The notes: a model not told the origin generated them from the sequence alone. A stretch of 63,950 nt of DNA, filler included, from Raillietiella orientalis (GCA_036172245.1; 6 parts of 6 records of this genome joined end to end with filler, not necessarily neighbours in it), one strand, 5' to 3'. Positions 2,148-63,950 are shown, counted from the first letter of the whole stretch. Numbers and translations: made by a program.

Positions 2148-2158
2148 ATAACCTTTCA

Positions 2159-4370: not shown

Positions 4371-4417
4371 TATCAACTTCAAGCCAATCGTTACTTCTAC
4401 TAGTAAATTACCCATTT

Positions 4418-5130: not shown

Positions 5131-5490
5131 TCTGTCATATTAGTATAAATAAAGAAATTTTCCTTTTTGATGTAAACAAAATATTCATTAAACTATTTCT
5201 TTTTATGAAAAATGAATCTGAATTCATTTTTTTTAAAATTAAAAATATTTTGGGAATTAGTTTTTTCATACTAACTGAGGATAATATATTTTATAATAAT
5301 AACAATAAATGATTGTTATATAAAACATTTGGAGTTAATTATAAATCAAAGAATGTTCTTTGTACTCTGAAAATTTAATATAACTATTACATTATATGTC
5401 AGGTATAAAATTAATATTTTATTATAATGAATAATTAATGTACTTAAATATTTTTATCTTACAGTACATAGAACATGTATGTATAATGAA
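5130..5490. other. AT-rich control-region-like segment of the NUMT
   Basis: Extremely AT-rich with T-runs, directly upstream of rrnS where a control region is commonly located; no coding signal. Confidence 0.5.
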
Positions 5491-12323: not shown

Positions 12324-12493
12324 GTGAACATGCTTCGCGGCTCAAAGTATTGTACGCACGACAACTTAATCAGTTAATTGTGCTTGTGTGTGCCCGGAGA
12401 GGGGAAGTTTCCAGACGAAACTACAAAAGAAGCGGCGAGGAGATCGCGGCAAAAGACCTGCAGTGGTCCCGTGCAGCAAGACCAGCTGCCAGG

Positions 12494-14227: not shown

Positions 14228-14240
14228 GTCTTCCCCTTTT

Positions 14241-17200: not shown

Positions 17201-17759
17201 CGATCGCTACGGGAATGACCGGATAAACCTGTTAGCGATTGGCACGACGCTCTGGAGGAGTGACCTTCCGCCGGGCAGCCAGGATGACCTCCTGATGTTT
17301 TATCATGGAGGAATCCAGAGTGGGTCCCGATTGCAGCACTACACCGGAAGAAGGGAAGCCCGAGACTGCGCAGCATGTGGACACACAGACATGAGACTTC
17401 ACGTCTTGACGTGTCCCACATTGCTGCATGACTGATTGATCCTGAAAAGGATCATCGGACTCACCACCAGGTCCGTAATGGAGATCCTCGCCGGGATGTT
17501 TCAGGGGGATGGTAATGTTCTCTGTTACAATCCCATGGTGAGGACGACCATCGCCCTCTTCATCACCGCCATACTTGTGTGGTGGTGGAAAATGAGGAAA
17601 GCCAGAAGAGCCGCACCACCGATGGAGATTCTACAAGGGCTCCTTAAGAGGGACATCGGCATTAGAAACTGTGGGAAAATCCATGCCTGGACGTACCGAT
17701 TCATCCTGAAGAGGATAGAAGACGACGCCCGGGACCAAACAGCAGGAAACCCACCATGA
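14241..17759 (+). pseudogene. A1 ORF2, APE endonuclease - reverse transcriptase - C-terminal zinc motif
   Basis: EN: WNVNG, LQETH, VNVYGP, GDLN, SDH; RT: WRPISILNSDAK, DMEKAFDSIDH, GVRQG..LSP.LF, YADD, KYLG; C-terminal CAACG...HVLTC; stops at 17148-17150 and 17433-17435 are sense codons in A3. Confidence 0.95.
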
Positions 17760-17902
17760 GTGCAGAACTTGTGAGAACCCAAGGACTTCATAGTGGTAAA
17801 AAAAAAAGTGCTAATGGTATGGATGAGATTGTAGTGTGAATGTTTTGTAGAAAAATTTTAGAGAAATGAATTCACCCCACCCCTCGTGGGACTTGAGGAA
17901 AG

Positions 17903-19275
17903 CTGCCGAGTCGGCGATGGGGCGACTGCATGCAGCGTGCTTTTGCTCGTCGCGACGCTGCTTTATTCGGCTTTCGTAGCCTTTGCAGAGGGGTCTGCGC
18001 TGCAGTGGGGCTGTCCGGAACTCGGAAGGGACAACAAAATGGGGCAAGAAGTCTTCGCACTGTTGCGATCTTCCTGTTTTTCTACCATTCCCTCTACGGT
18101 GTTACGGAGATTTCCTGGTTCCTGGCTCGGAGAGGTGCCTGCGAGTTCGGCAGCGAGGGAGAGCACGGCACGCGTCAAATTCTCGCGCAACTTTTTAATT
18201 GGCTTCCCCGCCGTGACTTTCCCCTTTCGGTGCGTTGCTGGCGGGGACACTTTCTTTTCATCCGCGGATCGCTCGTTGTTTTTTCCGAGTTTTTGCGGAC
18301 AACGTTTTTTATTTGCTGCTGCGACTTTTCGTGCAGTGGTCTCTTGAACCCGACGAATCTCCGCTGCGGCTCTTCATCTTGCAAGTACCGGGCACTTTTT
18401 GATTTCGTGCATGGAATCTTTGCAATAGCGGCATCTTGTAGAGGGGCACTCCTTAATTCGGTGCCCATCCTTGCCGCACTGCTCGCACGCGCGAGTCTGA
18501 GATATGAACCAAAGGTGAATGACCGTGCCGTTCACCTGCAGCTGCTCAGGCACAACACGCCTGTTCGCGACGGTGATCCGCGCGGAGGCTTGTCCGATGT
18601 GGACAGAGGAGAAATCCTTCAAAGAGTTCGGCCTCCTCCACAGGACGTGCACGGTGCCGATCTTCGCCAGCACGGTTACAACATCGCGGTCGGAGATTTC
18701 TGGTTCGATGTCGCACAATTGAACGACAAAAGAGTCGTCCATCGCGGTAGGTAGGACTTCCTTGCCATTGATGGTCAACGGCGTACGGAGAAGGCGCTGC
18801 ACAAATGCTGCGTTCTTCCACCGAATCTTCGTATATTCCATCCTGCCAGCAGGCATTATGGCAAGGAGTTCTTCCTCGCGAACGCCGATCCGGACGAGCT
18901 TATCATTGAGCTCACGACCGATTCTCATGTTAAGGGGCCCACTGACCTTATAACGGAGTGCAGGCATGTATCCTGATGACACATATGCCTGGAACTCCGC
19001 ATCGCAGGGTCCTGGTCTTTGGAAGGTAACGGCGGCGCAACTCCTTACCGGGGGGAGGAAACCATTACGGAGGATGCGGCCACTTCAAGTGCAGCTGAAG
19101 TGCATATAGTGGCTTGCTCCTCCACACTATCCTGTCTACTGGCCATGTTGCACTATGCTACTTGGTAGATTGCACAGGAACACAAAAGTGCGAGCGAAAA
19201 CGCAGGCACAAAGTTGCCTTATAGTTGGCGCGGATACACGCGGAAACCTGTCTGCACTGTACGAGCGCAGGAGAT
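17903..19275 (-). mobile_element. Family C non-LTR element copy C1: 5' UTR and 5' part of gag-like ORF1 (ATG 19146), interrupted by A1
   Basis: CEQCGKDGHRIKEC and CRYCKDSMHEIKKC knuckles; homologous to 60314-61688 and 48174-48916; in-frame stops at 18374 and 17963. Confidence 0.88.
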
Positions 19276-19278
19276 TTC

Positions 19279-21065
19279 TCACCCGGTCACGCCGGGGCGT
19301 TTATTCCATATAACATATTAAAAAAAAGCAATTGTACAAAATAAACCAGTTGGGAACCAAACTCCCAACCGACGACTGAACAAGAATGAAGAGAATATTG
19401 CTGGCACGCAGGCCAGAGTAACAGTTTTTTGAACGGTGTGGGGGGGCGGGAAACACAAAGAAACCAAAATAAAATAAAAACAATGAATAAGGAGGGCGGG
19501 ATAAGGGTCTTTGGGATCGCTCTGGAAGACACGGGGATAAAAGCATGGGCACGGGAAATTTTACCGAGCGAACGGGGACGGGGTATGGGTGGGCGAGAGG
19601 TCGCAGGGGTCACCGGATTACGCCGTTCTCAAAGGTGTGTAAACCGGCGATGTATGCCGGTGATGTCCTCATTCACCTTGTCACGAAGATGAGACCACCT
19701 TGAAGCCTTCTCCATGAATTGAGCTGCAAGCAGGTGAGCCTCCCTTCGCTGCGATGACAACTCCAGGGCGTAGCGGGCCTTCACGATGGCGCGAACGCAA
19801 CACATGGTTGCGACAATCGTGCCAACCGAAAGTCCATTTCTGCTGAAGAAGCGCCGCAGCACATCAATGGCAGTGCCTCCTTGTGGCATGATGGCCGAAG
19901 TGAGCCTTCGCCACAGTTCCCGGAGGTCACCGCAGTCCAGCAAAAGGTGCGGAAAAGACTCGAACTCTCCGCACCTTAAACAGTTTGGCAAAGCAGCTCC
20001 CCCGGAAACGATGCTTCCGTGCCTATTACAGTGAAATGCACAATGTAAAAAGAGCAGCACATCTTGTTTCCACTTAAGGGGGAACACGGAGCTGTCCAAA
20101 CAAACGGAGGTAACCACTATCTCTCCGGGGGGCACACTTAAATGTTCGCTCCACCGAAGCAGTCCCTTCGCCCGATTCCGAGGTGTGGCGGCTTGCACCA
20201 GCTCCTTTGTCGTCCAGCTGCCGAGGAGCTTACTGACTCTTGCTATTTTGCAGAACTCCCATTCCGCCGCTAGGCAACCGTCGTTGCTTGCTTTGATGGC
20301 AGACAGCGCTGCGGCGAGTGGTGTGGCGGCCAGACGTTCCGACAACTTCTTGTCCTGCATCACTTCGTCCATTTGATGACTGAGGAGAAGTCGCAGGCGT
20401 CGAAGATCTTCCGGGCGCGTTCCTTCGGAAGCTGCCCACGATGAAAAAGATTCCTGCCGCCATGCATTAATGTTCATGGGGTGGCAGGAGATCCAGCTTT
20501 GGGCTTCCAGCAGTGCGGACAGCTGCCTCAGCGGGAAGCCAAACCCTATTCTGGTGTGCCGAAAGTGGGGTAGCAAGGAAAGCAGTCCCTCGCTTCCCGT
20601 GCAGCGCCTCAGTATAAGGCGTGCGGGTAAGCACCACGGCGTACACCACAGCTTGGCACAGAGCCGCAGCATGCGAAACTGCACCTGCAGTTCGATGCTG
20701 TTTAAGTCGAGGATGCCCAAGCCTGCATCCTGACGCGGCGCCACCAAGTCTTTAAGTCTAACCCGGGATCTTGCAGCGCCCCACAACGCTTTGCGTGGAA
20801 GGCGCTGCGCCCAGACTTTGACTTCCTGGGAGGGTGGACAAACAAAAAACAGGGGGCGGAGGAGGGGGGCAACGAAGGTGTTCCAGATGCAGGCCCGTTC
20901 CGGCAAGACGAACTCGCCTCCTGAAAACGGGCCAAGTGCACGCTCTGCCTTCCGAAGGCAGTCCGACCACGCTTCTGAGATGCAGAAGTCGCCCAACGGC
21001 ACGCCAAGGTACCTGAGGTACCTGCCCGTGGGGATCCCCAGGTCGATCCAGTCGGACTGCCCCTT
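19279..21065 (-). mobile_element. Family B non-LTR element, 3' portion (end of RT, zinc motif, 3' UTR)
   Basis: ORF 19629-21002 with upstream RYLGVPL, DAGLG and CLRCGEFESFPHLLLDC; T-rich 3' UTR ending AATAAACGCCCCGGCGTGACCGGGTGA. Confidence 0.9.
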
Positions 21066-21362
21066 AGAAAGGCCAGTAGCGACCCCACGAGGAGATCGTT
21101 ACTATTGGCCTAGGACGATGGTAATCCTTGGGTTCTTCTTTTTCTTCTGTCTTCGCTGTTTTCCTTCCAGCTTTTGTTTTTTTTTTTTTTTTTTTTAAGA
21201 GTTTTCTTTTTTTTGGTTCGCTAAGTACCTCAGAGCCGGTCGCGTGCCTCGCGGCGCGCGTGGCTCTTTTTTTTTAACATTAACACACTGTTTTGTTTCC
21301 ACGCCTGTCCGCGGCAACCGCAGGGGGGGGCGTGTAATTCTTCAGTGTAAATATTCTTCAGG

Positions 21363-21974
21363 ATAGGGGGCACCCCGGGATGGGGTCCGCCCTATTGAAT
21401 CCAGGAAGGGCTCGGGAGTCCGTTCCTCTCACGCTTGGGGAGGGATCCCCCCCGGACGGGGGGAATCTCACCTCCCACCCTGGTTGTCTCCGAAGGGGAA
21501 CCCCGAAGGGAACTCTCCTTCCTCATTCTCTCCGGAGGGACACCCCCCCTCTTGCGGGGTGGTGGTCCTCTCCATTTCAACTTTTCCGAAGGGAACCCGG
21601 AAAGGATCCGCTTCTAGGAATTTCTTCTCCAGAGGGAACCCGCAAGGGAACCGCTCCTTTATTCACTCCTCTGAAGACAACCCCCACAGGGGTGCTTCCG
21701 AAACTCAGAAGGGGCGCTGCAGCTTCCCGCAGGGAATCGCTCTCGCTTAGCTTCTTTCCTTTGTACACACTCTGTGAAGAGGCGACGACTCGGAGGGACC
21801 CCCCAACAGGGAGGTCCGTTCCTTTGAACGACTGGAGAGGTGCCCGTGAGGGCTCCTGCTCCATCTTGAAACCGGAGGCGGTCCCCCCGGTGACGGGGGT
21901 CCACTCTCCTTTGCACACAGGAGGGGGAACTCCCCACTCCTTTATTCTTGGGAGGACCCGAAGGTCGACTCCCA
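21363..21974. repeat. Array of ~14 degenerate GC-rich stem-loops within a ~1.1-kb non-coding block (21066-22175)
   Basis: Repeated GGAG-GG..CCC-loop-GGG..CC-(R)-CTCC architecture every ~45 bp, with compensatory stem variants. Confidence 0.75.
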
Positions 21975-22175
21975 TTGTTCCGGCCTTCATCGGCTGGCCG
22001 CCGGCTTTATCCACCGCCGGGGCCACGCCCGAATGTCTCGGCCAACCAGCGCCGTTCAGGAGAAACTCGGAACCCAAACGACGCAATGGCATCAAGTTAT
22101 CTGCCCAAGTATTCGAACCCGCGACGCATGGTGCCACTCGCGGAAGCCTTAACCACAAAGCCTCCGACGCGGCTG

Positions 22176-24523
22176 GCTGCCCTCCTGGATCCGTAGGGAG
22201 GCACTAAGACGTTCCCACAGGGGTCGGAGGGCAGCACAATCAACAAGGAGGTGGGGTAGGGTTTCCCGTTCCCCACACCTGATGCAGGTAGGATCTGCTT
22301 GACCCCTGGTCCAGTGGTGGCGGCATGCGTTGCAGGGTAGACCCCAATGCAACAACAGATGCGCCGACTCCTGCCACTTCAGGGGGAGGATCCTAGATCC
22401 AATTAATACCGCGGGCCACTTCAGGTCATCCGGCTGGATGCCGAGTAGCTCGCCCATCTCTGCAGTCCTCTCGGCTGGACACTAGGGGTAGTGGCGTCCG
22501 CCAGTTCCCCCGTGGACCAGCCGCTGATCAACTTCTTCCCTGCGATGCGGCAGGAGACTTGCCACCTAGGCTTGCGGCTGCTGGAGAGCGCCTTCCTCAG
22601 GAAGGGCATCGCCGTAGCTAGGGGGGTTGTCTCGGCCCACGTGCTTCTCGCGGGACACTGGAGTATCTTCCGCAGAGTGCAGCGGGAATAGGCGCCGCGT
22701 GGCAGGCAGTTCCACATCTCCCCGTTCTTCTGGTTTATCTTCGCCCACGTGCCAGCTGTCTCCTCCAGCCATGCGGAGGAGTTGGCGAAGCTGCATACCA
22801 TCCAGCCGTTTTCCTTAGCCAGAGTTGCCATGCGTCCCAGGAGAAGTCCGCATCTCTTGATCTTCCTGCCAAGGCACAGAAGATAGAACGCGAGACCCTC
22901 CGTCCCGGATGCACGGCTGGCAAGGAGTCGGGCCGGAACGCACCAAGGGGTGCTCCATAACTTCGCTGCGATGGCGAGGGTTCGCCACCGCAGCTGAATC
23001 TCTACTCGCTCCATCGTCAAGAGGCCGAGACCGCCATACCGACGTGGAGCACACAAGTCCTTTAACGGGACTCGGGGCCTCCCTCTTCCCCAAAGGGCAA
23101 TTCTCAGGAGGTCCTTTGTCCGTTTTTTCAACTCTCTGGGGACGGGGCAAACAAAAAGCAGGGGGCGGAGGATAGGAGCTGCAAACGCGTTCCATACCGC
23201 GGCCCGTTCCGTAAGGAGAAACTTGTCTTCCAGGAACGGGCCGATCGCCGTTTCCACTCTTTGGAGGCAGCCGGACCACGCTTCCGCAGGGCAGTAGTCC
23301 CGCAACGGGACACCAAGGTACTTCAAGCACCTCGCCGTGGGGATCCCCAAGCGGACCCAGTCCTGCTGCCCAGCCCACGCCGCAACGACTGGAACCACCG
23401 TCGACTTCGCCCTGTTCACCGTAAGTCCGGTCCCGCGGCTAAGCAGATCGAAGAAATCCCCGACCACCTTCGCCGGGGTGGACATCGGCAACAGAAGCAA
23501 AAGATCGTCGGCGTACGCTGCTACGGCGGGCGTGCCGGGGCACGAGCTCGGCAAGGGGGCCAAAGTCACCATGTACGCTCTCAGCACCAAATCAAAGTAG
23601 GTGCTAAAGAGCAGGGGACTGAGGCTGTCGCCCTGCCGTATGCCCCGCCGTAGCGGCACGCCGTACGCCATTTGACTTCTGAAAGAGATATTGATCAGCG
23701 CGCTGCGCCAGCAAGAGCGCAGGTAGGTCAGTAGGAAGGGAGGGAAGCCCATGCGTCCCAGGAGCTCCAGCAGGAGATCCTTGTCCCCGCAGTCAAACGC
23801 TTTGTGCAGATCGACTGCGATCGCTAGGGCTCCCTTCCCCACCTGGGAGTCCTGTCCCTGCCCGGCTGACGCTCCCAAAGCGGGGCTGCCAATCCTTCCT
23901 TCTTCCTTTTCTTCACTACTCTGCACATGAAACCATGTGCTCGCGAAGAAGAGGTTGGCCTCTATACTTCGCCCGGGAACAGCGTAAGTCTGCTCCGGGC
24001 TAATTATGGAATTGGCCACCTGCCTCAGACGCGAAGCTAACAGTCCGGCGATCAACTTGGCGTCCGTGTTCACAATTGTGATCGGACGCGAGTTGCTGAG
24101 TTTCCTGAGGTCTCCTCCTTTCGGAAGGAGCCTCACTCTGGCTGACCGAAACAAGGCGGGTACATCGCCTTCATCTCGGATCAGCCTTGTCAACTCAAGC
24201 ATCAGGGGTGCCAACTTTGCCGCGAAGCATTCAAAAAACTCCGCGGGCAAGTTGTCTTCCCCTGGAGCTTTCCGCCTCTTGAGCCTTTTGATACCGGCGA
24301 GAATTTCGCCGGTGGTAAAAGGCTCATCGAGGCTTAACGACTCCTCCTCCCCTATTGCCGCGGCACCATCCGGAAGCAAGAGCCGAGAGGCATCTTGATC
24401 CGGGGGCGCCCTGGCGTAAAGGGAGGAATAATAACTCCGCACGAGATGCCGTACCGACGCCGGGGACGAACATTCCCGGCCCTGGTCGTCCAGCAAGCTG
24501 GCCAACCCGGATTGCCAGGCTTG
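22176..24523 (-). mobile_element. Family B non-LTR element ORF2 fragment (RT through zinc motif)
   Basis: 694-aa ORF 22421-24505: RPITIVNTDAK, DLHKAFD, GIRQGDSLSPLLF, YADD, KYLG; after a frameshift CIRCGERETLPHLLVDC; homology stops at ~22176. Confidence 0.92.
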
Positions 24524-36600: not shown

Positions 36601-36692
36601 TGGCAAACTCCGGTCATGGGGAGCCGCTGATCCTCCCAATTTCCTGGTTTCAGAGGATCATCAAGAACAGTCCGACATTTCATTAGATGATA
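24624..36692. repeat. Satellite DNA, 278-bp monomer, ~43 tandem copies
   Basis: Motif GAAGCATCCATTTGCAGTGAGTGGCAAA recurs every 277-278 bp across the whole contig; several monomer variants. Confidence 0.99.
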
Positions 36693-48173: not shown

Positions 48174-48916
48174 GTCCTGTGGTGGAGGCCGAACCCTTTG
48201 TAGGATTTCTCCTCTGTCCACATCGAACAAGTCTCCGCGCGGATCCCCGTCGCAAACAGGCGTGTTGTGCCTGTGCAGCTGCAGGTGAACGGCATGGTCG
48301 TTCACCTGTGATTCATAGGCCAGACTTGCGCGTGCGAGAAGTGCGGCAAGGATGGGCACCGAATTAAAGAGTACCCCTCTCCAAGATGCCGCTATTGCAA
48401 AGATTTTGGGCACGAAATCAAAAAGTGCCCGGTACTTGCAAGAAAAAGAGCCGCAGCGGAAATTCGTCGGGTTCAAGAGACCACTGCTCGAAAAGCCGCA
48501 GCGGCAAATAAAAAGCGTCGCTCGCAAAAACTCGCAAAAAACCACGAGCGATACGCGAATGAAAAGAAAGCATCCTCGTCCCCAACGCCCCGAAAGGGGA
48601 AAGTCACGGCGGGGAAGCCAATTAAAAGCGGCGCAAGGGTTTCACGCGTGCGGTGCCTTCCCTCTCTGCCGAACTCGCAGGCACCTCTCCGAGCTAGGAA
48701 CCAGGAAATCTCCGTAACACCCTGGAGAGAAAGGTAGGAAAACAGGAAGATCCAACGGTGGGAAGACTTCTTGCCCCGTTCCGTTGTCCCTTCCGAGTTC
48801 CGGACAGCGCCACTGCAGCGCACGCTTCTTTGCAAAGGATACGAAAGCCGTAAAAAGCAGCGTCGCGAGGAGCAAAAGCACGCTGCATGCAGACGCCCCA
48901 TCGCCGACTCGGCAGT
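48174..48916 (+). mobile_element. Family C copy C2, ORF1 segment upstream of the A2 insertion
   Basis: Homologous to C1 and C3 knuckle region; ends ...APSPTRQ at the left TSD 48904-48916. Confidence 0.88.
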
Positions 48917-51900
48917 TTTCCCCAAGTCCCACGAGGGGTGGGGTAGATTTATTTTTCTTAAATTTTTCTATAAAAACATTCACACTACAATCTCATCCAT
49001 ACCATAAGCACTTTTTTTTACCACTATGAACTCCTTGGGTTCTCACAAGTTCTGCATTCATGGTGGGTTTCCTGCTGTTTGGTCCCGAACGTCGTCTTAT
49101 ATCCTCTTCAGGATGAATCGGTACGTCCAGGCTTGGTTTTTCCTTCAGCTTCTAATGCCGATTTCCCTCTTCAGGAGCCCTTGTATGATCTCCATCGGTG
49201 GTGCGGCTCTTTTGGCTTTCCTCATTTCCCACCACCGCACAAGTATGGCGGTGATGAAGAGGGCGATGGTCGTCCTCACCATGGGATCGTAACAGGGAAC
49301 ATTACCATCCCCCTGAAACATCCCGGCGAGGATCTCCATTACGGACCTGGTGGTGAGTCCGATTATCCTTTTCAGGATCAGCCAGTCATGCAGCAATGTG
49401 AGACACGTCAAGACCTGAAGTCTCGTGTCGATCTCTCCACATGCTGTGCAGTCTCGATCTTCCCTTCTTCCGTTGTAGTGCTGCAATCGGGACGCACTCT
49501 GGATTCCTCCATGATAAAACATCAGGAGTTCATCCTGGGTGCCCAGCGGAAGGTCACTCCTCCATAGCGTCGTGCCAATCGCTAACAGGTTGATCCGGTC
49601 ACTCCCGTAGCGATCGGCGGCTTCCTGGAGGGCACTAATATCACTGTGTTCTCCTTGAATTAGTCTTCGGAGGTTTGTTTTGGTTACCCTGGACCACGCA
49701 AAGTCGTTGTGATTGAACCACACTTCGCGAGTCATGTGGGTAAACCTTCCTAACATCATCTCTATATACCTAAGTATACGAGTGTGATGTAGGTATTCTC
49801 CTCGTTTCCACTCCTGGATTCGTTGAAGGGTAACTCTGGACCGCTGGTGGGTCCAGCTTCTCGTGTCAGGCGGGACAGGAAGCATCCAAGGGATCACGAG
49901 GATGAAATCGTCCTGCCAGAGTTCCCTACTTCTCGGCAAGATTTTGATTTTGTGCTTCCGCACCAGTTGTTGCTTCCTCGTCCAGGTTGAATCGATTTTT
50001 TTCCATTCGCCTGCTCGGCCTAGCAGCGCAGTCATCAGGCCTTTCGAGTTGTTCCATAACAACTCGTTGGCCCTGTGCGCCGCATACGGCCAGTCATCTT
50101 AGTGAGTGGCAATGTCCACAATGTGTGGCGTATCCATGTTTTGTATGGAGTGTGCAAGCGACTTCATCCCGGAACCGCTTTCTTCCCTGCGACGACACAG
50201 GGGTTTTTGTCGGACTCTTGGGCGATAGTGGCCCCACAGTGTTTTTCTCTGCAGCTTGTCGAACTCCCTCGTGGAATCCTTGTTCATCCTCGCAAAGGCC
50301 GCCCCGAAAAGCACTTTTGGAAGGAGCAATCCGTTCCATATGTTGGCCTTTCGCTTCATTCCAAGGTCCGTTCGGGTGTACTTGGCTGCTTCCTTGGCCG
50401 TTTTCCCTAGGATCTCGGTCCACAATAGCTTCGACGCGGAGACGTCGCCAATGTATACACCCAGGTACTTGGCCTTGTCCACCGTTCGGAATCCTCTCCT
50501 TGCTAGAGTGAAGAGATCGAGGATTCCAACGGGCAAGAGCTGGCTTTTCTGGGCGTTGATCTTTAGACCGAGGCCTTGATCCATCAGGTCTACCACATCC
50601 AGAAACGCTCGTTGATTTCTCTCTCCCTTGATGAAGAAGAGTACATTATCAGCGTATGCCAGATGGGTAAGACGCTGGCCATCTATTGTTATGCCTTGCA
50701 GTCGTCCCCTCTTCTCGATAAAAAACGACAACGCCTCCATATAGATTACGAACAGCATCGGACTTAGCGAATCGATCTGCCGGACTCCCTGTTCCATCCG
50801 GATTGCTGCCATCTCCTGGCCGTTGATTCTAATTCGGCAGTACTGGTTCTGGTGTACCACCCTCACGAAGTTGCTGAAGTGTTCCGGAAGGCCTACCTTC
50901 TCCAGAACCTTCAGCAGCATCCCATGGAAGATGGAGTCGAAAGCCTTCTCCATGTCAGTGAACACCAGCGCCAGATTCTCGCCGACGTATCGGCTGATTC
51001 CGACGGTGGTCTGGGCACACTTGACATTCTTCGACACGTGACGTCCAGGGACTGCACACGTTTGCACCGGAGAGATGAGCCTCGACATGACCTTGCCTAA
51101 GCGGTTGGACCAGATCTTCGCCAACCACTTGGCATCGGAGTTCAGGATCGAGATTGGCCTCCATTGAGCCACCTGCGTGAGGTCGCCTTCTTTTGTAACA
51201 ATCTCATCTGGCTCTCGTAGAAGGACTGTGGAAGTCTTCCTTCTTCGCGGATGCATAGGGACAACTGGTGGAACAAACGCAGGTAGGCATGCAAGTACTG
51301 CTGATAGTGAGGAATGAGCACGCTGTCAGGGCCCGCTGCCACGTCCTTGCGTAGTTGACCAAACGCAGTCTTCACCTCGTCTCCGGAGAATTTCTCCTTC
51401 AGTCTGCTCTGCTGGAGATCGTCGATCCTCTTCTCGAGGTAGCTCAGAAAGGCCTGTTGACTACAGCGACACAGCTGTTGTCGCCTCAAGTGTTTCGTGT
51501 AATGCCTTTCAAAGGCACCCACGATGTCCTTAGACGACTGTCGCTTTTGACCGTCGTACTGGATGCCGAAGATATCTGTTGCCAGATTTCTCTTCTCCAG
51601 CACGCCGACTTTCCCTTTTATGTTCTTGAAGACGTACCGACTCCCGTACTAATCAAAGTACTTTGAGAGTGAGCGATCTTGGATGTTCAGCTCCAGGTAC
51701 GCCTCTTGCCTCAAGCGCCTATCTCCGAACTGCATGTTTGCAAACAGGTGTATCCTGTGTTTCAGGCTGTCCCAGTCGGCGACTCTTCGGATTGTTGTTG
51801 CTTTCAGAATAGTCTCCAGGACAGCCTGATGTCCGGGATATGTTTCGAACCAGGCGGGCATGCTGATGAGCGCCGCCCTGGTGCCTTGCCTTCGCCGCAG

Positions 51901-54545
51901 ATTCTCCGTTCTCAGGGAAAACCGCACCAGGGGGTGATCGGACACCGTGGTCATAATGTCTCGAAAACCCTGGATGCGATTCATAAGTTTGGTGCTGTGC
52001 AGGACGTGATCTATCGGCTTGTGACTTGCAGTTCGCCACACCAGTCCGAACTCTTCGGATAACCGCCGATACGCCGTCCTTCATCTGGCGTCTTTGGATC
52101 GAGTGATCTCATCCAATATGTTGAGATCGCCAGCAACAATCGCGACGTCCTTGGAAGCAACCTTTTTACGAAGTGCTGCATGCAGCGCCTCCGCACAACG
52201 ATGTTTAGCCTGTGCGGCCCGTACACGTTCACCAGGATGAGGTGAACAGTAGCGGACCACGCCAGTCGCACGCAGATGATTCGTCCGGGTTGGATACACA
52301 ACACTTCTGGAATAGTGGGGGCCAGGTTGTTCTTGAATAGGACCGGCACTCCCTGCGTGTTCCGTTCTCCCTCGCTGACGAAAATCTGCCCGTTGAATCG
52401 CTGTTCTATTTGCTGACTAATCTCGAGACCCATCTTGTGGGTCTCCTGCAGGGACACTATGTCTTGTTGTGCGATGGTCCGCACAATCCTTCTTTTTTTT
52501 TACTGGTCGAACATACCGTTTACATTCCAGGAGGCGATGTTCAGCCTCCTGGCGGTCGATAGGGAAGAGGCCATAAGAGGGGAAGTCCTATTTCTTGGCC
52601 TTCCTGAGATTCTTCTGTCTGAGTGAGCGTGCTCTTCCAGACAACGAAGAAGCAGCGGGCTTCTCGCTGACGGCGTCACTCTCTGTTCCAGTGAGGTCGG
52701 CTACTTCCACCTCCTCCGTCGAGTGTTCGGCCCGCGCGATGAGTTTTCGAGATAGCGTCTCCATCTTGACCTTGGCGCAGAGGTTCGCCTTTACGTCGAG
52801 GAGCAGTTCCTCTAGCTTTTTGCGCTCGGTGACCTTCACAACCTGGTTGACCTTCTTCTGTGCATCGCAGATCTTCTGCAAGATTTTCTCTTGCTGCGGA
52901 CCGCTTTGTGCCTCTAGGACATCATTAGCCAGTGATGCCAGCTCCTCAATAGATTGCAGGGCCTCCTGCGACACCGGAGTGGCTTCGGCTATTTCTTCTT
53001 CCGCGCCTTCCTACGCTACCTCTATCTCCTTGCCTTCTTGCTCTTCACCTTCTAGAATAAGAGGGGTTTCTTGCTTCTTGACGAGCTTCCTCCTCATTCC
53101 TTTCTTCCCTAACTGTATGAAGCCGTCTTCCGATACCGGGACGGCTTCTTTAACCTTCTTCGGCCTTCCTGCCTTCTGAGGCTGTTCCGCCTCCTTGGTG
53201 TTTCTCTCTCTCACGGGAGAGAGACCTCGAATTTTTCTGCAGTTTGCAAACTCCGAACAGCTAAATTTGGCATGTCCTTGTTTCTTGCAGAAGGAGCACA
53301 CCTCCGGCTGCGGGCAGTTTTAGACTTGATGTTCTACTTTGCCGCAGCGGAAACAACGACTCGTCGGGCGAGCGCCGGCCCTGTGGCCGAACTGCTTGCA
53401 CCCGGTGCAGAATATCGGTTGTTGCCGGTAACGCACGTTTACTATCTAGGATTGTTCGTCAAGAACGGCTAATCCAGGGATTACAGCTCCCTCTTTCAAC
53501 TTCGTTTTGGCGATCATGTCGCCAGAAAATATATTTCTAGAGAAGTTCTGGAATTCAAGGTCCAGAACTTCCCCATACTGCTCCAAAAAGTTCCAAACCG
53601 TTAATTGCGGTGTAATGATGGAGATGCCGTTCAGAAACACGGTTGTGTATGGCATCTCGTCAACACCACAAACCATCTTCCCTTGTACATTGATCCCCTC
53701 CTGGATCAATCGCTCCCTAAACTTTTCACATTCTGTGAAGACAGTGAACCCGTTGTTTGCCGGTATGATCGCCTGTATGCGATCAAAATTCATGTCCGTT
53801 TTATCGAGGGACAGATACACCTCCCTGATATTATCGAACTTGATCAGCCAAGTCTTGAAAATGATGGGCTTTACATTCGGCTCTAACTACACGATCGGCC
53901 GATCCATCCTTGGGACTTTACCGCATAGCGGCTTCCCGAATTTTCTTGGTGGGTAGACACTCGCTTGTCCAGCCACCACCGACGCATAGGAAAAGGGCTG
54001 CGCCGCCGCAGCCAAACAAGATGGCGTCTCGCCCTGAACCGCGTGGACGCCCGCGGGTCCTGCCTGGGACGCCGCCGCTCCTAGCGCAATTCACGACGTC
54101 GCCACCGTTGTCGCCGCGGGCGGCACCCTCGGCATCGCAGCCGCAGGGGCGACGTTCCCCTCCGCGGGCACTGTCCTTGGCGTCGCCGCCGTGGGCACGA
54201 CCTCCGCCGTCGTCGCCTCGGGCACGACCCTTGGCATCGCCGCCGCCGGCGCAGCAAAGCCAGCCGGGGGCGCGATCCTCGGCATGCCTGCAACCGCCTC
54301 GCCGCTCCCGCACGTTACCTCCATGGCTTCCATGGGGGACGATGGTCTCTCCACTCCTCCTATAGGTGCCTGCATCCTGGCAGCTAATCTTGCTGCACGG
54401 GACCACTGCAGGTTTTTTGCTTCGATGTCCTCGCCGCTTCTTTTTTAGTTTCGTCAGGAAAACTTCCCCTCTCCGGGCGCACACGAGCACAATTAATTGA
54501 TAACGTTGTCGAGCGCACAATACTTTGAGCCGCGAAGCAAGTTTA
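48917..54545 (-). mobile_element. Family A copy A2, full length and degenerate, flanked by a 13-bp TSD
   Basis: Collinear with A1 from 5' UTR to 3' end; CCGACTCGGCAGT at 48904-48916 and 54546-54558. Confidence 0.95.
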
Positions 54546-56280
54546 CCGACTCGGCAGTAGAAGAGCAGTATCCCGACTGTCAAGAAGGTGACTCCATTGA
54601 CGCCTTTTAAAGGCGTAGCGGAAGCAACGCTTGCAGAGAACGCAGCGAAAATCCCGGAGGTTTCCGCAATTACTGTGGCGGAAGCTTTCAAAAATCGCGA
54701 AAACCAATGGAAGGTTGTGGAGAGGAGGACAGAAAAATCTACAAAAAAGCTAAGTAGCATCCATCCCTGAGCTCTTCCAAAGGAAAAAGCAGTCGCGGGA
54801 ATACGAAAACACGCGCAGCTTGTGCCTCTTCCAAGCAAAAAGCCAGCGGCTTCAACGCGTGCAAGTCCGCTTCTGTGACCGCCGAGAAGATTATTCCGGT
54901 GCAATCGGACGGATGCAAGCGCACGTCGATCGTGAGAGCATCAGACTCCGCAAAGGATTCTGATAGCGGCGCTGAACAACCCGTTAATCGCCCGGGAGCG
55001 AGTGCCCACGGGGCTGAAGCCCTGAGGCGTGACACACTCACCGCGGAACGGCGAGTGCTCACCGCGGAACCCACAGGTTCTGCACCCGGGGAGAAGCACC
55101 TGATTACGTGCAGCACAGTTGAGGCCGGTGGCGACTTCGCCCTCCAGCCCGTCGTGCTGCTTATTGCCCGCTCGCCGGTTGACGCAAGCACCACGGCCTC
55201 GCTTTCCCAGCCGTGATGAGGGCAATCGCGTCTTCTCGTCGTGTTGCCGTAACGTCTTGGAACGACAACGGGCTCCAACACGTGGAGAAGAGGAGACTAG
55301 TGGCTGAATCTCTGCGCGATTTCGACTTGACGCTCCTGCAGCAGATTCACAGCATCTCCGGAGAGCAGGCTGCCGAAATCGAACGGCGCGCGGGCTTAAC
55401 GCTACTCAATAGGTGCGGCGTTGCACCTACGTGCGGCGTCGCTTTCCTCGTGTGAGGAAATTTGGCAGGAGCGGTGCGCAGCGTTCGTTTCGACACGGAA
55501 GGCTGAGTGGGACAGCTTGTACTCAAGTGGTACGTGTCGATCGACCTTGTCGTTAACAACGTGTACGCGCCGAGCTGTGCTGGACGATGGACTGAAAGGA
55601 TTGAGTTATTCGGTACACTTCAAAGCCGGTGGCTCACTCGATCTCACCCTAGACGGCCCATCTCATTGCGGGGGACGTTAACGTCCACCTGCTTTCCGAG
55701 ATTAGATCCCACAAAACGGAAAAGCTGCTAGCGGAAGACATGTGCGCGTCCGTGCACGCTTGCAACTTTTTCGCTAGCGACCCTGTTATGGCAGCAACGC
55801 CGGAACACGTTTACCTTGATGAACACTTGCTCTGTCGAGTGGGTTGTTGAGGTCCCGTGCCATGCGTGCTTTCAGATCACAACAGGCTCGAGTTCGAGCT
55901 GCTCTCGCCAGGCAAGAGGCCTCCAAACTGTTTTAGGAGGATGCCAGCAGACTGGCTAAGCCACCCTGAGGCGGCTGAGCATCTTCGCCAGTACCTCCTT
56001 GGATTTGCAAATAGTTAGCTCCAGGACTGGGACGATCTGAAAAGATCAGTCCGCGAGTTCTGCTGCCGGTTTCCCTTGCACCAGCTACCGCGCGGCTTCG
56101 AAGAGGGCGTAGCAAACTGCTGAGATTTTCTGCAGGCCCGCTTTTTTTCCAAGCGCGCTGTCGTTGGTCGATAATCCGACTACAAGGCCAAGGCCGAGCG
56201 CCAGGTCTGGCAGTCAGGGGCAACAGTTCTGCTCGACGACCAGGACCGGGAATGCTCGCTTCCAGCCGACGTTTGCCACC
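54546..56280 (+). mobile_element. Family C copy C2 continued: ORF1 C-terminus and degenerate endonuclease
   Basis: Reading frame resumes after the TSD (PTRQ*KSSIPTVKKVTP...WKVVERR); TGATG stop/start at ~55214; SWNDNG, LLQQIH, NVYAP, AGDVN, LSDH. Confidence 0.82.
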
Positions 56281-59246
56281 CAGAGATGCCGGGGCATTTA
56301 TTATTCTAATTTTCTACAAAAATTAGATAATAAAGTATTTTAAAAGTTAATTGTGGGAACCACTTGGTTTTCCCACCTTGGTTGACTTGTCGGTTGCCGG
56401 TGCATAGACCGGTTAGGTCCATTCCCGAGGCGCATGGGAAGGGAACACTAAAACAAAAACAAACAAAAAGAGAGATAACAAGGAGAGAAAAAGTTGTATG
56501 GGGGGAGGAAGGGGGCAGGGAAGGGATCACTGGGTGCCTGGGTCGGTCCTCCGCATCCTGTTGAGGATGCAGTCAAGTTCCGCTTTTATCGTTAAAGGTA
56601 GACGCCACCTTGTCGCCGTCTCTAAAGAGATTGTTGTCCAGTGGATGGCGTCCCTGCATCTTGGGCCTCTTCTTCTGGCGTGCCACCTTTGCACAATGCC
56701 GCGCACGCAGCAGAGGACTGCTAGAGACGCAGCGGTGCGCAGGCCGTCAGCAGAAAGAGGCGACGGTAAATTTCCTTAGGGTCGCCTACTGGAAGATGGA
56801 GGATTGGGGCGATTCTACTCCAGAGTCCATCCAGGGCGACACACTCGAGGGTGAGATGCGGGAATGTTTCTCTTTCTCCGCACTCGACACAGCGGGCATC
56901 CACATTCCCCAGTGTCCAGTGAGACAGGCGTAATCTGCTTAACAGTCCCCAGTGCAGAAATAGCAACGCCGTCTCCTGCCACTTAAACGGAAGTGTGCCA
57001 CAATCCCAACACGCTGGGGGCCACTTCACCTTCTTCGGAGGTATTGCGAGCAGCTCTCTCCAGCGCGCAAGTCCGTGAGGCGGGACGCTCGGGGTGGCAG
57101 CGTCCGTGAGCTCCCGAGTCGTCCACGCCTTTAAAGGTTTCTTCCTGCCTCGGATGAGGCAGGACACTTCCCACGATGCCAGCACGTTGCTGCTCTTACT
57201 GTATTTCAGGGAGGACAGAACGGGGGCAAGGGGGCTGAAAGATGCCCACAGAAACTTCCGGGGCGTGTTGGTAATATCCTGCAGCGGCTGTTGAGCGTAC
57301 AGTCCTCGTCGTAGGCAGTTGTATTCCGCCTCGCTCGTTTCGTTGATCTTAGCCCACGCGGAAGCTGACTCCTGAAGGCAGGCAGTGCAGTTCGCGGGGA
57401 TGCAGGAGATCCAGCTATTCTCCCTCATCAGGGGGACCATCTGGCGCAAATCGGGACCACAGTTGGAGAGGCTGCGCTGGTAGGCCACGAGGATCGAGGG
57501 CAATCCTTCGCAGCCGGTCGCTCTTCTGGCGAGGAGCAATGCCGGATCGCACAATGGCGTCATCCATAAGCTAGCCGCAAGGGCTAACTTTCGAATTCTT
57601 CTTTGAAGTTGGATACGCTCCAACGTAAGGAGGCCCAAGCCACCATCCCTGCGTGGAGCGCACAAGTCTTTCAATCGGAATCGCGACCTCGCTGTGCCCC
57701 AAAGGGCAGTCCTCAAGAGGTGTTTTGTCCGTCTCTGTATGATGGGAGGGGCGGGGCAAACAAAAAGTAAAAGGCGAAGGAGGGGGGCCGCGAACGCGTT
57801 CCACACCGCGGCCCGCTCCTGCAAGTAAAACTTGCCGTTCCGGAACGGGCCGATCGCCAACTCCACCTTTTGGAGACGGTCGCACCAGGCTTCTGCAACG
57901 CAGAAGTCCCCCAACGGAACGCCAAGGTACTTGAAGCACCTGCCCGTGGGGATCCCCAAGCGGATCCTGTCCGGCCGTCCGTTCCACGCCGTATTGTTGA
58001 AAAGTTGTGGTGATGCTGGAAGGATGGAAGATTTCTCTCTGTTCACCTCGAGGCTTGTCCCGCGGCGCAGCAACTCAAAGAAATCTTCGAGCGCCGACGC
58101 CGGGGTGGACCCGGGGAGCAGGAGTAGAATGTCGTCGGCGTAGGCCGACACGGCAGGCGTGCCGGGACACGAGCTTGGCAGGGTTGCCAGAGTCTCCCTG
58201 TATGCCCTCAGCACCAGCTCGAAGTAGATGCTGAAGAGCATAGGGCTCAGACTGTCACCCTGCCTTATGCCACGCCGAACCGGCGCGCCGTACACGTGCC
58301 GGCCGCTAAAAGAGTTGTTTATTAGAGCGAAGCGCCAACAGGAGCGCAGGTAAGCCCGGAAGACGGCCGGGAATACCAAGCGTTCCAGGAGCTCCAGAAG
58401 CAGTTCCTGGTCGACGCAATCGAACGCTTTACGCAGATCGACTGCGACCGCAAGGGCACCGGGCGCGGCTCTTCCATGAAGGGCGTCCCCTCCCTGGTCA
58501 GAGGAGAATCCAGGATTCTCTTGACCTCCGTGGTCTTCGGTTTGTTGCAGCTGCCACCATGTACTGGCGAGGAACAGGTTGGCCTCCATGCTTCGTCCGG
58601 GACCAGCGTATGTCTGCTCCGGACTCACCACGGATACCGCCACATGTCCCAGTCGCTCAGCCCAAAGCTTGGTACGCAACTTCGCATCCGCATTCACTAC
58701 TGTGATGGGACGCCAGTTGCCTACGTTGCGATTGTCTCCTCCTTCCGGCAGGAGACGTACTCAAGCTGACCGGAACGATTTGGGGACGTCCCCTTGTTCT
58801 CGGATCAGCATGCATAGCCGATGCACCAGGGGGGCCAGATCCGCCACGAAGCCTTGGTAGAACTCCGCGGGCAGATCGTCTTCCCCTGGTGCTTTTCTCT
58901 TTCGGAGCTTTCCGATGGCGGAGACGATCTCCGCCATCGAGAAAGGCTCCGCGAGTTCATGTGCCTGCTCCTCCTGCAGGGCGGGGGCGCCTTGCGGCAG
59001 CAAGCGCTGCGCCACGGCGTTCTCTGTTGTTCTACGCGCGTACAAGGAGGAGTAATAGTCCCGCAGGATGCGGATTATTCTCGCCGGAACTGACCGTTCT
59101 CTGCCTTGGGCGTCCAGCAAGCTGGGAGACCCGGATTGCCAGGTCTGTCGCTCAGCCCCAGGTTTATACTCCGCCAGGCGTCGAACGTCGGGAGTACTAG
59201 AGTAAACACGGGCTTGGTGGTATGCCCGGTCGTTCGTCAGCCCCTC
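56281..59246 (-). mobile_element. Family B element (B3): RT, zinc motif and 3' UTR
   Basis: ORFs 58761-59120 and 56721-58697: DLRKAFD, GIRQGDSLSPMLF, YADD, KYLG, CVECGERETFPHLTLEC; ends AATAAATGCCCCGGCATCTCTGGG. Confidence 0.92.
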
Positions 59247-60313: not shown

Positions 60314-61688
60314 ATCTCTTGCGCTTGTACAGTGCAGTCGTGTTTCCGCGTCTATCCGCGCCAACGATCGGCAACTTTGTGCCTGCGTTTTTGCTCGCAC
60401 TTGTGTGTTCCTGTGCAATCTGCCAAGTAGCATAGTGCAACATGGCCAGTACACAGAATAGTGTGGAGGAGCAAACTACTGGATGCACTTCAGCTGCACT
60501 TGAAGTGGCCGCATCCTCTGTAATGGTTTCCTCGCCCCCGGTGAGGAGTTACGCCACCGTTACCTTCCAAAGACCAGGACCCTGCGATGCGGAGTTCCAG
60601 GCATTTGTGTCATCAGGATACATGCCTGTACTCCGTTATAAGGTCAGTGGGCCACTTAACGGGAGAATCCGTCGTGAGCTCAATGATGAGCTCGTCCGGA
60701 TAGGCGTTCGCGAGGAGGAACTCCTTGCCATAATGCCTCCTCGCAGGATGGAATATACGAAGATTCGGTGCGAGAACGCAGCACTTGTGCAGCGCCTTCT
60801 CCGTACGCCGTTGACCATCAATGGCAAGGAAGTCCTACCTACCGCGATGGACGACTTTTTTGTCGTTAAATTGTGCGACATCGAACCGGAAATCTCCGAC
60901 CGCGATGTCGTAAGTGTGCTGGCGAAGTTCGCCACCGTGCACTCTCTGTGGAGGTGTCCAAATCCTCTAAAGGATTTCCCCTCTGTCCACATTGGACAAG
61001 CCTCAAGGCGGATCACCGTCTCGAACAGGCGTGTTGTGCCTGAGCAGCTGCAGGTGAACGGCACGGTCGTTCACCTGTGGTTCATACGCCAGACTCGCGC
61101 GTGCGTTCAGTGCGGCAAGGATGGGCACCGAATTAAAGAGTGCCCCTCTCCAAGATGCCGCTATTGCAAAGATTCCGGGCACGAAATCAAAAAGTGCCCG
61201 GTACTTACACGAAAAAGAGCCGCAGCGGAAATTCGTCGGATTCAAGAGACCACTGCACGAAAAGCCGCAGCGGCAAATAAAAAACGTCGCCCGCAAAAAC
61301 TCGCAAAAAAACCACGAGCGATCCGCGGATGAAAAGAAAGCATCCTCGCCCGCAACGCCCCGTAAGGGGAAAGTCACGGCGGGGAAGCCAATTAAAAAGG
61401 GGCGCGAGGGTTTGACGCGTGCCGTGACTTCCCTCTCTGCCGAACTCGCAGGCAGCTCTGCGAGCCAGGAACCAGAAAATCTCCGTAACACCCTGGAGGG
61501 AAAGGTAGGAAAACAGGAAGATCGCAACAGTGCGAAGACTTGTTGCCCCGTTCCGTTGTCCCTTCCGAGATCCGGACAGCCCCACTGCAGCGCAGGCCCC
61601 TCTGCAAAGGCTACGAAAGCCGTAAAAAGCAGCGTCGCGACGAGCAAAAGCACGCGCCATGCAGTCGCCCCATCGCCGACTCGGCAGT
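60314..61688 (+). mobile_element. Family C copy C3: 5' UTR and ORF1 5' part (ATG 60442), interrupted by A3
   Basis: 296-aa ORF 60442-61332 with two CCHC knuckles, +1 frameshift in an A-run near 61310; target motif at 61676-61688. Confidence 0.9.
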
Positions 61689-63932
61689 TTTCCCCAAGTC
61701 CTACGAGGGGTGGGCTAAATTTATTTTTCTAAAATTTTTCTATAGAAACATTCACACTAGAATCTCATCCATACCATTAGCACCTTTTTTTTTACCACTA
61801 TGAAGTCCTTGGGTTCTCACAAGTTCTGCACTCATGGTGGGTTTCCTACTGTTTGGTCCCGGGCGTCGTCTTCTATCCTCTTCAGGATGAATCGGTACGT
61901 CCAGGCGTGGATCTTCCCGCAGTTCCTGATGCCGATTTCCCTCTTCAAGAGCCCTTGTAGGATCTCCATCGGTGGTGCGACTCTCCTGGCTTTCCTCATT
62001 TTCCACCACCGCACAAGTATGGCGGTGATGAAGAGGGCGATGGTCGTCCTCACCATGGGATTGTAACAGGGAACATTACCATTCCCCTGAAACATCCCGG
62101 CGAGGATCTCCATTACGGATCTGTTCGTAAGTCCGATGATCCTTTTCAGGATCAGCCAGTCATGCAGCAATGTGGGACACGTCAAGACGTGAAGTCTCGT
62201 GTCGATGTCTCCACATGCTGTGCAGTCTCGATCTTCCCTTCTTCCGGTGTAGTGCTGCAATCGGGACCCACTCTGGATTCCTCCATGATAAAACATCAGG
62301 AGGTCATCCTGGGTGCCCGGCGGAAGGTCACTCCTCCAGAGCGTCGTGCCAATCGCTAACAGGTTGATCCGGTCACTCCCGTAGCGATCGGCGGCTTCCT
62401 GGAGGGCACTGATATCACTGTGTTCTTCTTGAATTAGTCTTCGGAGGTTTGTTTTGGTTACCCTGGACCACGCAAAGTCGTTGTGGTTGAACCACACTTC
62501 GCGAGTCATGTGGGTAAACCTTCCTAACATCATCTCTATATACCTAAGTATACGAGTGTGATGTAGGTACCCTCCTCGTTTCCACTCCTGGATTCGTTGA
62601 AGGGTAACTCTGGACCGCTGGTGGATCCAGCTTCTCGTGTCCGGCGGGACAGGAAGCATCCAAGGGATCACCAGGATGGACTCGTCCTGCCAGAGTTCCC
62701 TACTTCTCGGCACGATCTTGATTTTGTGCTTTCGCACCAGCCGTTGCTTCCTCGTCCAGGTTGGGTCGATTTTTTTCCATACGCCTGCTCGGCCTAGCAG
62801 CGCAGTCATCAGGCCTTTCGAGTTGTTCAACAACAACGCGTAGGCCCTGTGCGCCGCATACGGCCAGTCATCCCAGTGAGTGGCAATGTCCAGGATGTGT
62901 CGCGTATCCATGATTTCTATGGAGTGTGCAAGCGACTTCATCCCGGAACCGCCTTCTTCCCTGGGACGACACAGGGGTTTTAGTCGGACTCTTGGGCGAT
63001 AGTGGCCCCACAGTGTTTTTCTCTGCAGCTTGTCGAACTCCCTCGTGGTTTCCTTGTTCATCCTCGCGAAGGCCGCCCCGAAGAGCACTTTTGGAAGGAG
63101 TACTCCGTTCCATATGTTGGCCTTTCGCTTCATTCCAAGGTCCGTTCGGGTGTACTTGGCTGCTTCCTTGGCCGTTTTCCCTAGGATCTCGGTCCACAAT
63201 AGCTTCGACGCGGAGACGTCGCCAATGTAGACACCCAGGTACTTGGCCTTGTCCACCGTTCGGAATCCTCTCCCCGCTAGAGTGGAGAGATCGAGGATTC
63301 CAACGGGCAAGAGCTGGCTTTTCTGGGCGTTGATCTTTAGACCCAGGCCTTGATCCATCAGGTCTACCACATCCAGAAACGCTCGTTGATTTCTCTCTCC
63401 CTTGATAAAGAAGAGTAGATCATCAGCGTATGCCAGATGGGTAAGACGCTGGCCATCGATTGTTATGCCTTGCAGTCGTCCGCTCTTCTCGATAAAGGAC
63501 GACAACGCCTCCATGTAGATGACGAACAGCATCGGACTTAGCGAATCGCCCTGCCGGACTCCCCGTTCCATCCGGATCACTGCAGTCTCCTGGCCGTTGA
63601 TTTTGATTCGGCAGTACTGCTTCTGGAGTACCACCCTCACAAAGTTGCTGAAGTGTTCCGGAAGGCCTAGCTTCTCCAGAACCTTCAGCAGCATCCCATA
63701 GTCGATGGAGTCGAAAGCCTTCTCCATGTTAGTGAATACCAGCGCAAGATTCTCGCCGACGTATCGGCTGAGTCCGACGGTGGCCTGGGCACACTTGACA
63801 TTGTCCGACATGTGACGTCCCGGGACTGCACACGTTTGGACCGGAGAGATGAGCCTCGACATGACCTTTCCTAAGCGGTTGGACCAGATCTTCGCCAACC
63901 ACTTGGCATCGGAGTTCAGGATCGAGATTGGC
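61689..63932 (-). mobile_element. Family A copy A3, 5'-truncated
   Basis: 3' UTR and ORF2 homologous to A1; homology ends at 63932, where family C sequence resumes. Confidence 0.93.
61832..63932 (-). CDS. A3 ORF2 partial, uninterrupted RT plus C-terminal zinc motif
   Basis: 688-aa open frame: GVRQGDSLSPMLF, YADD, KYLG, CTACGDIDTRLHVLTC. Confidence 0.85.
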
Positions 63933-63950
63933 TTGTCCGCTTCTGTGACC

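Follow-up and report, generated by a model that had tools for sequence, protein, structure and literature searches.

The targets known for long interspersed nuclear elements (LINEs) comprise ribosomal, small nuclear and transfer RNA genes, microsatellites, telomeres, DNA transposons, and long terminal repeat (LTR) retrotransposons. LINEs with specific targets are found chiefly in the early-branching, the Tx1 and the R1 groups (PMC4494074), and for the Tx1 and R1 clades a target specificity determined by the endonuclease, with transposons among the targets, has been described (PMC4494074, PMC4640811, PMC1919474). In Xenopus laevis, Tx1L inserts into the piggyBac-type DNA transposon Tx1D (PMC4494074, PMC1919474). 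Among crocodilian Tx1 families, Tx1-Mar inserts preferentially into Mariner-N4_AMi, Tx1-9_AMi into Harbinger, and Tx1-8_Crp and Tx1-4_AMi into specific LTR retrotransposons (PMC4494074). R1Bm of Bombyx mori has an apurinic-type endonuclease with a defined 14-bp target region, on which nicking of the bottom strand precedes that of the top strand (PMC1919474). In this study, we analysed a 63,950-base stretch of DNA from Raillietiella orientalis (GCA_036172245.1), hereafter the window, and found that a LINE, which we call family A, is joined at its 3' end to the same base of the first open reading frame (ORF1) of a second LINE, family C, in all three of its copies. Judging from these copies, it is likely that A is a sequence-specific LINE of the L1/Tx1-like group which always enters C ORF1 at a single site and in a single orientation, and that the window holds three separate insertions of different ages, mostly into decaying C copies.

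Like Tx1L, A has two ORFs and an apurinic-type endonuclease, to which the specificity of Tx1L has been attributed, and it occupies one site in another multicopy transposable element. Unlike Tx1L, whose target is a DNA transposon, A would have as its target the coding region of another LINE. Like the crocodilian Tx1 families, A appears to prefer a defined position in one transposon family, and some of their targets are retrotransposons as well; no LINE, however, is among the targets named in the passages of PMC4494074 consulted here, and the crocodilian preferences were measured over hundreds of copies as compared to three to four for A. The 13-bp duplication around A implies the same geometry as the staggered sequence-specific cleavage by R1Bm, albeit with nicks deduced from the duplication only, whereas R1 belongs to the R1 clade and its target is the 28S ribosomal RNA gene (PMC1919474). 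A also shares with human LINE-1 ORF2p the order of endonuclease and then reverse transcriptase, but, unlike human L1 with its loose TTTT/AA target and poly(A) tail, A ends in AAA only and uses one site. The human L1 ORF1 protein is not known to have CCHC knuckles, in contrast to that of A.

Results

Family A and its insertion site in family C

The window consists of six unrelated contigs joined by N44-TTAATTAATTAA-N44 spacers (Table 1). The sample for the targeting question is the three A copies of the window along with the contigs of one public run, X1. These are Logan contigs (0.07 of the sampled words), 317 of which were aligned to contig 5; 11 of the 317 are at least 99% alike to it, and most are 85-95% alike. 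They can show presence but never absence, and their summed word depth is not copy number.

On contig 5, the 13-mer CCGACTCGGCAGT occurs in two exact copies which are extendable on neither side, and between them lies a full-length LINE of 5629 bp on the minus strand. Thus, both the clean 13-bp target-site duplication and the full-length A copy claimed in the original prediction are confirmed. With up to one mismatch, the 13-mer has 4 matches in the window, compared with 0.06 expected from shuffles. The other two, an exact one on contig 6 and one on the minus strand of contig 2 whose last base is C, lie at the ends of the other A copies. All three A copies (contigs 2, 5, and 6) are antisense to C, and the junction of their 3' end with C does not differ by a single base. 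The predicted recurrence in two other contigs thus also holds, with the junctions at 17901/17902 in contig 2 and 61688/61689 in contig 6. All three C copies which cover the site are filled by A, and no empty C site was found in the window. The site holds a 4-1-4 near-palindrome, CCGA-C-TCGG. A hidden RNA gene as the target was considered and rejected, as Rfam gave no match there. No locus with the repeat plus right-flank pattern was found in a metagenome contig collection, and none with the A 3' end pattern in metagenome contig and prokaryote genome contig collections.

A is a non-LTR retrotransposon with an apurinic-type endonuclease and belongs to the L1 group, as indicated by its domain order, its ORF1, and the target-site duplication. 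In the best-preserved copy, that of contig 2, the 5' untranslated region (UTR) is 170 nucleotides (nt) long, ORF1 has ~567 codons from the first ATG (12494-14197) with three CCHC zinc knuckles, and ORF2 contains the Pfam domains Exo_endo_phos (residues 57-256, E 2.5e-11) and then RVT_1 (504-750, E 2.1e-33). The 3' UTR of 142 nt carries AATAAA ~25 nt ahead of the terminus, ...GGGGAAA. The two ends of A are unrelated to each other, and thus there are no terminal repeats. The contig 5 copy is damaged, with five private stops in ORF1 and with two 1-bp deletions plus stops in ORF2, although Pfam still recognises RVT_1 and Exo_endo_phos in the ORF2 pieces, and the last 705 ORF2 codons of the contig 6 copy are open. 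With ORF1 including its knuckles and ORF2 including both of its domains, the coding set is complete, and A is probably an autonomous LINE of the L1/Tx1-like group. Of the proteins with a solved structure, human LINE-1 ORF2p matches best (PDB 8sxt, 8c8j and others; E 8e-51, reverse transcriptase region). A protein search with A ORF2 gave 10 matches, the best with 26% identity and all unnamed or annotated as 'hypothetical protein', and its neighbours in a protein atlas were generic RVT_1 plus Exo_endo_phos clusters only; neither the search nor the atlas places A in a clade. ORF1 of A (12494-14197, plus strand; 54375-52618, minus strand) is unusually long, with an Ala/Pro-rich N-terminus and a Glu/Lys-rich acidic tail of ~210 residues, and the stop within its third knuckle in contig 2 is private, contig 5 having Phe at that place.

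The interrupted element is a second LINE, and A sits antisense within the C-terminal part of its gag-like ORF1. The 743 bases to the left of the contig 5 insertion match 17903-18646 (89.4%) and 60946-61688 (91.0%), and the C copy of contig 2 matches 60314-61687 of contig 6 with 91.6% identity over 1375 bases, the homology ending at the same base in both. This common limit lies 128 bp ahead of the ATG which opens an ORF with two CCHC knuckles, and the frame with both knuckles reads on for ~160 codons beyond the second, through the 13-bp site (...APSPTRQ). In codon alignment, the left part of C on contig 5 has three stops and two 1-bp deletions, none common to the other copies; the right part occurs only once in the window. 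Removal of A and one repeat copy had been predicted to restore a single C frame running on to an endonuclease ORF. This is right in outline but not for an intact frame: past the second repeat copy, the contig 5 frame resumes with an immediate TAG followed by further stops, and homology to the A endonuclease (A ORF2 residues 41-163 against 55207-55575, 27% identity, E 1.8e-9, tblastn) lies in another frame, C having decayed. The endonuclease assignment rests on this tblastn match to A, as Pfam gave no match on the broken C endonuclease pieces.

Probable independent insertions at one site

The three A copies of the window look like independent insertions rather than copies of one, based on their flanks, selection, ages, and disabling mutations. 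Beyond the common start of C, contigs 2 and 6 are unrelated, and the neighbour in contig 2 is the exact 3' terminus of another LINE, E. Unrelated outer flanks right at the C 5' end exclude segmental duplication for this pair, and a limit which abuts the E 3' terminus marks the true 5' end of C.

The same junction could also have arisen by 3' transduction, where A entered C once and read-through RNA of A plus 1375 bp of antisense C was then retrotransposed as a unit to unrelated places. This would explain the identical junction, the common 1375-bp limit, and the unrelated flanks beyond it, and the 5' flanks of the contig 2 and contig 6 A copies are out of view. Nevertheless, we consider it improbable. 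The limit lies where a natural 5' end of C is expected, its distance of 128 bp from the ORF1 ATG being comparable to the 170-nt 5' UTR of A. Read in the A orientation, it has no AATAAA, short A tail, or terminal hairpin, whereas the 3' ends of A, of a further LINE, D, and of E all have AATAAA ~25 nt before ...GAAA/GAGAA/GCAAA. That it abuts an exact LINE 3' terminus in contig 2 fits complementary DNA (cDNA) which reached the 5' end of C RNA but not a transduced 3' end, and the one base visible ahead of A in contig 2 agrees with the 13-bp duplication.

Selection was assessed by the ratio of non-synonymous to synonymous divergence (dN/dS) with Fisher tests. For A ORF2, dN/dS is 0.38 between contigs 2 and 5 (963 codons, p 9e-13), 0.27 between contigs 2 and 6 (497 codons, p 8e-8), and 0.46 between contigs 5 and 6 (p 1e-3), whereas the same counts in two shifted frames give 0.91-1.52, none significant. 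Such frame-specific selection indicates that much of the divergence of A arose in lineages which kept ORF2 working, while a dead passenger would give about 1. Between the copies of C ORF1, in contrast, dN/dS is 0.72, 1.11, and 1.02, none significant, as in neutral evolution. Selection on A with a neutral tail would be permitted by 3' transduction.

These ratios bear on a second alternative, in which A inserted once and the composite was copied afterwards, either by segmental duplication or by retrotransposition of C RNA with antisense A as a passenger and C proteins supplied in trans. The filling of every C copy in the window, the presence of the composite on three of the six contigs, and the overall nucleotide difference of about 9-10% which separates the A copies of contigs 2 and 5, near the flank value (10.4%), are as this would predict. 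However, the passenger would be neutral, in conflict with the ORF2 ratios of 0.27-0.46 against shifted frames near 1, and the non-synonymous divergence of A is 2-2.4 times below that of the flank for the two pairs involving contig 6 (p 2e-8 and 1e-5). In addition, the A copy of contig 6 keeps its 705 open codons beside a frameshifted C ORF1 with 3.9% private change, the outer flanks of contigs 2 and 6 differ as described above, and the RNA would have to be at least 8.7 kilobases (kb) long, 5.6 kb from A and 3.1 kb or more from C, and its ORF1 would be broken. We regard this alternative as very improbable.

Ages were compared by counting private changes over the 700 codons common to the three A copies and the 743 common columns of the C flank. 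In contig 6, they amount to 12/1624 (0.7%) at non-synonymous and 10/476 (2.1%) at synonymous sites of A, compared with 29/743 (3.9%) in C (p 4e-7, A non-synonymous against C, as for the other copies). The respective values are 38/1624 (2.3%), 27/476 (5.7%), and 40/743 (5.4%) in contig 2 (p 3e-4), and 53/1624 (3.3%), 19/476 (4.0%), and 36/743 (about 4.8%) in contig 5 (p 0.06). These counts suggest that the insertions differ in age and are mostly younger than their host C copies. Moreover, the synonymous divergence of A exceeds the divergence of the C flank between contigs 2 and 5 (0.164 and 0.104, p 0.001) and between contigs 2 and 6 (0.116 and 0.083, p 0.035), which also speaks against A and its flank having been transduced together. 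Taken with the private-change ages, this indicates that the histories of A and C are decoupled. Shared disabling mutations and shared outer flanks had been named in the original prediction as signs of one insertion later duplicated; no disabling mutation is common to the copies, either in A or in C, and the outer flanks of contigs 2 and 6 differ. The C copies look like one old burst decaying neutrally, and the A copies would have come from already diverged source lineages, arriving at three different times.

The X1 contigs add to the sample. A 595-bp contig spans the junction of C with the A 3' end (48611-48958, 24 differing letters) and then has 103 unlike letters in place of 48959-49068; as this replacement in the A 3' UTR is in none of the three window copies, the contig represents a fourth filled copy. 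A 519-bp contig spans the junction of the A 5' end with C (54254-54702, 46 differing letters, 10% from contig 5). It would be a second copy seen on both sides, and as such another point against 3' transduction, unless it stems from a related genome and is orthologous to the contig 5 locus. No X1 contig on contig 5 joins 48916 to 54559, as an empty C site would, but this is not counted as evidence, and no loose ends of X1 contigs at the A ends were seen among the 6 of 139 that were listed.

Other LINEs and features of the window

The coordinates of the features are collected in Table 1.

Table 1. Contigs of the window and LINE features discussed in the text
Feature	Contig	Position	Strand	Remarks
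Contig 1	1	1-12223		
Contig 2	2	12324-24523		
Contig 3	3	24624-36692		
Contig 4	4	36793-48073		
Contig 5	5	48174-59246		
Contig 6	6	59347-63950		
Family A	2	12325..17901	+	full length; 89.9% identical to contig 5 copy over 5631 aligned bases
Family A ORFs	2	ORF1 12494-14197, ORF2 14241-17759	+	one private stop in ORF1, two stops in ORF2
Family C, left part	2	17902..19275	-	C 5' end (19275) to site; target copy 17902-17914
LINE E	2	19276..24523	-	3' terminus ...AATAAACGCCCCGGCGTGACCGGGTGAGAA abuts first base of C
Family C, left part	5	48174..48903	+	ORF1 with two CCHC knuckles and C-terminal region; contig starts inside C
Target-site duplication, adjoining A 3' end	5	48904..48916	+	exact 13-mer
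Family A	5	48917..54545	-	full length; ends ...GGGGAAA; coordinates mapped from better-preserved contig 2 copy
Family A parts	5	5' UTR 54545-54376, ORF1 54375-52618, ORF2 52574-49058, 3' UTR 49057-48917	-	
Target-site duplication, adjoining A 5' end	5	54546..54558	+	exact 13-mer
Family C, right part	5	54559..56272	+	remainder of ORF1, interrupted by stops; endonuclease-like fragments start at ~55207
LINE D	5	56273..59246	-	antisense in C endonuclease region; 3' end ...AATAAATGCCCCGGCATCTCTGGGTGGCAAA at 56273; RVT_1 and zf-RVT in 56721-58760
Family C, left part	6	60314..61688	+	5' UTR 60314-60441, ORF1 ATG 60442; one private 1-bp insertion; target copy 61676-61688
Family A	6	61689..63950	-	3' 2.26 kb, runs off contig; 94.5% identical over 2244

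At the start of contig 2, a single base precedes the A 5' end, and contig 5 opens within C ORF1. The assembly is interrupted here at the edge of these repeats or inside them, as would be expected if they were present in many copies. The C copy of contig 5 carries two antisense LINE insertions, A and D, for the latter of which a single junction is available. At 19270-19285 (minus strand) of contig 2, the exact 3' terminus of E, ...GGGTGAGAA, directly adjoins the first base of C with no bases intervening, and both elements point the same way. Such a joint would arise if the reverse transcriptase, on reaching the 5' end of C RNA, switched to E RNA as its template, or if E had inserted at the very edge of C. 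In contig 4, motifs resembling LINE 3' ends, namely a short inverted repeat followed by GCAAGA or GAAGCAA, are found at 44181-44220 and 46230-46264, each followed shortly downstream by the 5' end of another LINE with an ORF1. Head-to-tail LINE joints may therefore be frequent in this genome.

The 3' ends of A (48917), D (56273), and E (19276) have in common AATAAA, a G+C-rich short inverted repeat, and only two or three terminal A residues in place of a poly(A) tail. The A 3' ends fold no better than shuffles (z -1.6, +0.4, and -0.9), and only the end of D does (z -3.5); a terminal hairpin was therefore dropped as evidence. No convincing start motif common to A, C, and the elements of contig 4 emerged from a comparison of their 5' termini.

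Elsewhere in the window, the whole of contig 3 is one satellite array (24627-36686) with a period of 278 bp, 43.4 copies, and 91% matches. Contig 1 has a segment (~2000-6000) of low G+C content (26-34%) and strong negative GC skew, in which Rfam detects fragments of bacterial-type large-subunit ribosomal RNA at 3318-3474 (81 bits) and 3716-3857 (32 bits, below the gathering score), both on the minus strand. No transfer RNA genes were found in it. This segment has the appearance of organelle-derived DNA within a nuclear contig, or of a misjoin.

Discussion

Our results suggest that A reaches one site in C ORF1 repeatedly, but several observations weigh against a site-specific LINE with independent insertions. 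The sample is tiny, with three copies and a few contigs of one run. Within the window, the junction of the A 5' end with C is seen in contig 5 only, as contig 2 ends one base outside A and contig 6 inside A, and every C copy seen is filled. The ages of A and C in contig 5 are not clearly different (p 0.06), and the synonymous divergence of A between contigs 5 and 6 equals that of the flank (0.087 and 0.090). Across contigs 2, 5, and 6, the private change of the C flank (5.4, 4.9, and 3.9%) is ordered like the private synonymous change of A (5.7, 4.0, and 2.1%). This order is also predicted if A and its flank were inherited together, as in 3' transduction, although with n=3 it may be due to chance. 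The ratio of A to C private change is not significantly heterogeneous among the three copies (chi-square ~5, 2 degrees of freedom, p ~0.08). The selection signal in A ORF1 is not frame-specific, with 0.59 in frame and 0.61 in one shifted frame, and A ORF1 was rejected as a test of selection because a shifted frame yields the same ratio. Finally, the summed word depth of X1, which is not copy number, is 26-72 for most bins of A, higher than the 7.5-18 of the two C flanks; if it did reflect copy number, A would have many copies elsewhere than in C.

The last point would fit a looser preference, in which A inserts at many kinds of sites and the C site is a hot spot over-represented in repeat-rich short contigs. 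Among Tx1 and Utopia families, it is common for the preference for a target to be weak and partial (PMC4494074, PMC4640811), and a sample of three A copies would be compatible with it. On the other hand, all three window copies and the fourth from X1 share both the base of insertion and the orientation, and tblastn finds no other A fragment in the window, the remaining matches all having at most 47% amino-acid identity. A loose preference therefore seems quite unlikely to us. The share of flanks at the C site is 3/3 window A copies (100%) plus the X1 contigs, numbers too small for the criterion by which a family counts as target-specific when one kind of sequence makes up >20% of its flanks (PMC4494074). 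Thus, the original prediction that A is site-specific in C gains from the unrelated outer flanks, the selection on A as opposed to neutral C, and the different ages, and is held back by the size of a sample of three copies and one run.

If A is a site-specific LINE, insertion could proceed as follows. The A endonuclease, for which specificity for the C site is predicted, would nick the C sense strand at 5'-GGCAGT^AGAAG-3', and the freed 3' end would prime reverse transcription of A RNA ending in ...GGGGAAA. The other strand would be nicked at a distance of 13 bp, at 5'-GTCGG^CGATG-3', giving rise to the 13-bp duplication, from the geometry of which both nicks are deduced. With donors all in the same site, transcripts which extend into the flank could anneal to the target once it is nicked and so reinforce specificity. 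Co-transcription with the target has been said to strengthen specificity in other elements (PMC4494074).

For A, the multicopy and non-essential sequence of C would provide a safe landing site. It had been predicted that A disrupts the gag gene of its host element. The position of the site, ~160 codons past the second C knuckle, bears this out, but C evolves neutrally and at least two of the three C copies were decaying before A arrived, so that a safe haven in dead copies fits better than a parasite which kills an active rival. A more far-reaching scenario, which we put forward tentatively and regard as rather doubtful, is that A is an obligate hyper-parasite: essentially all of its copies, including the active sources, would be at the C ORF1 site, the specificity would have been kept for long (from ~3.3% to at most 0.7% private change), and saturation of the site would have contributed to the silencing or extinction of C, the gag gene of a rival LINE being both niche and victim of A. 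The last idea arises from the observation that every C copy seen is both filled and neutrally evolving.

The listings and passages covered by our literature search describe no LINE that specifically targets another LINE, but Repbase Reports and most subscription journals were outside its scope, and such a case may be described already. Sequence-specific LINEs are natural models for programmable RNA-templated insertion, and they show how mobile elements keep the harm to their host small by the use of multicopy landing DNA. If our reading of A is true, a landing pad in the coding region of another LINE would be a new class of LINE target, and its endonuclease would be a new one with a long, defined recognition site. 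Furthermore, A and C would clearly exemplify how one family of retrotransposons can live on another.

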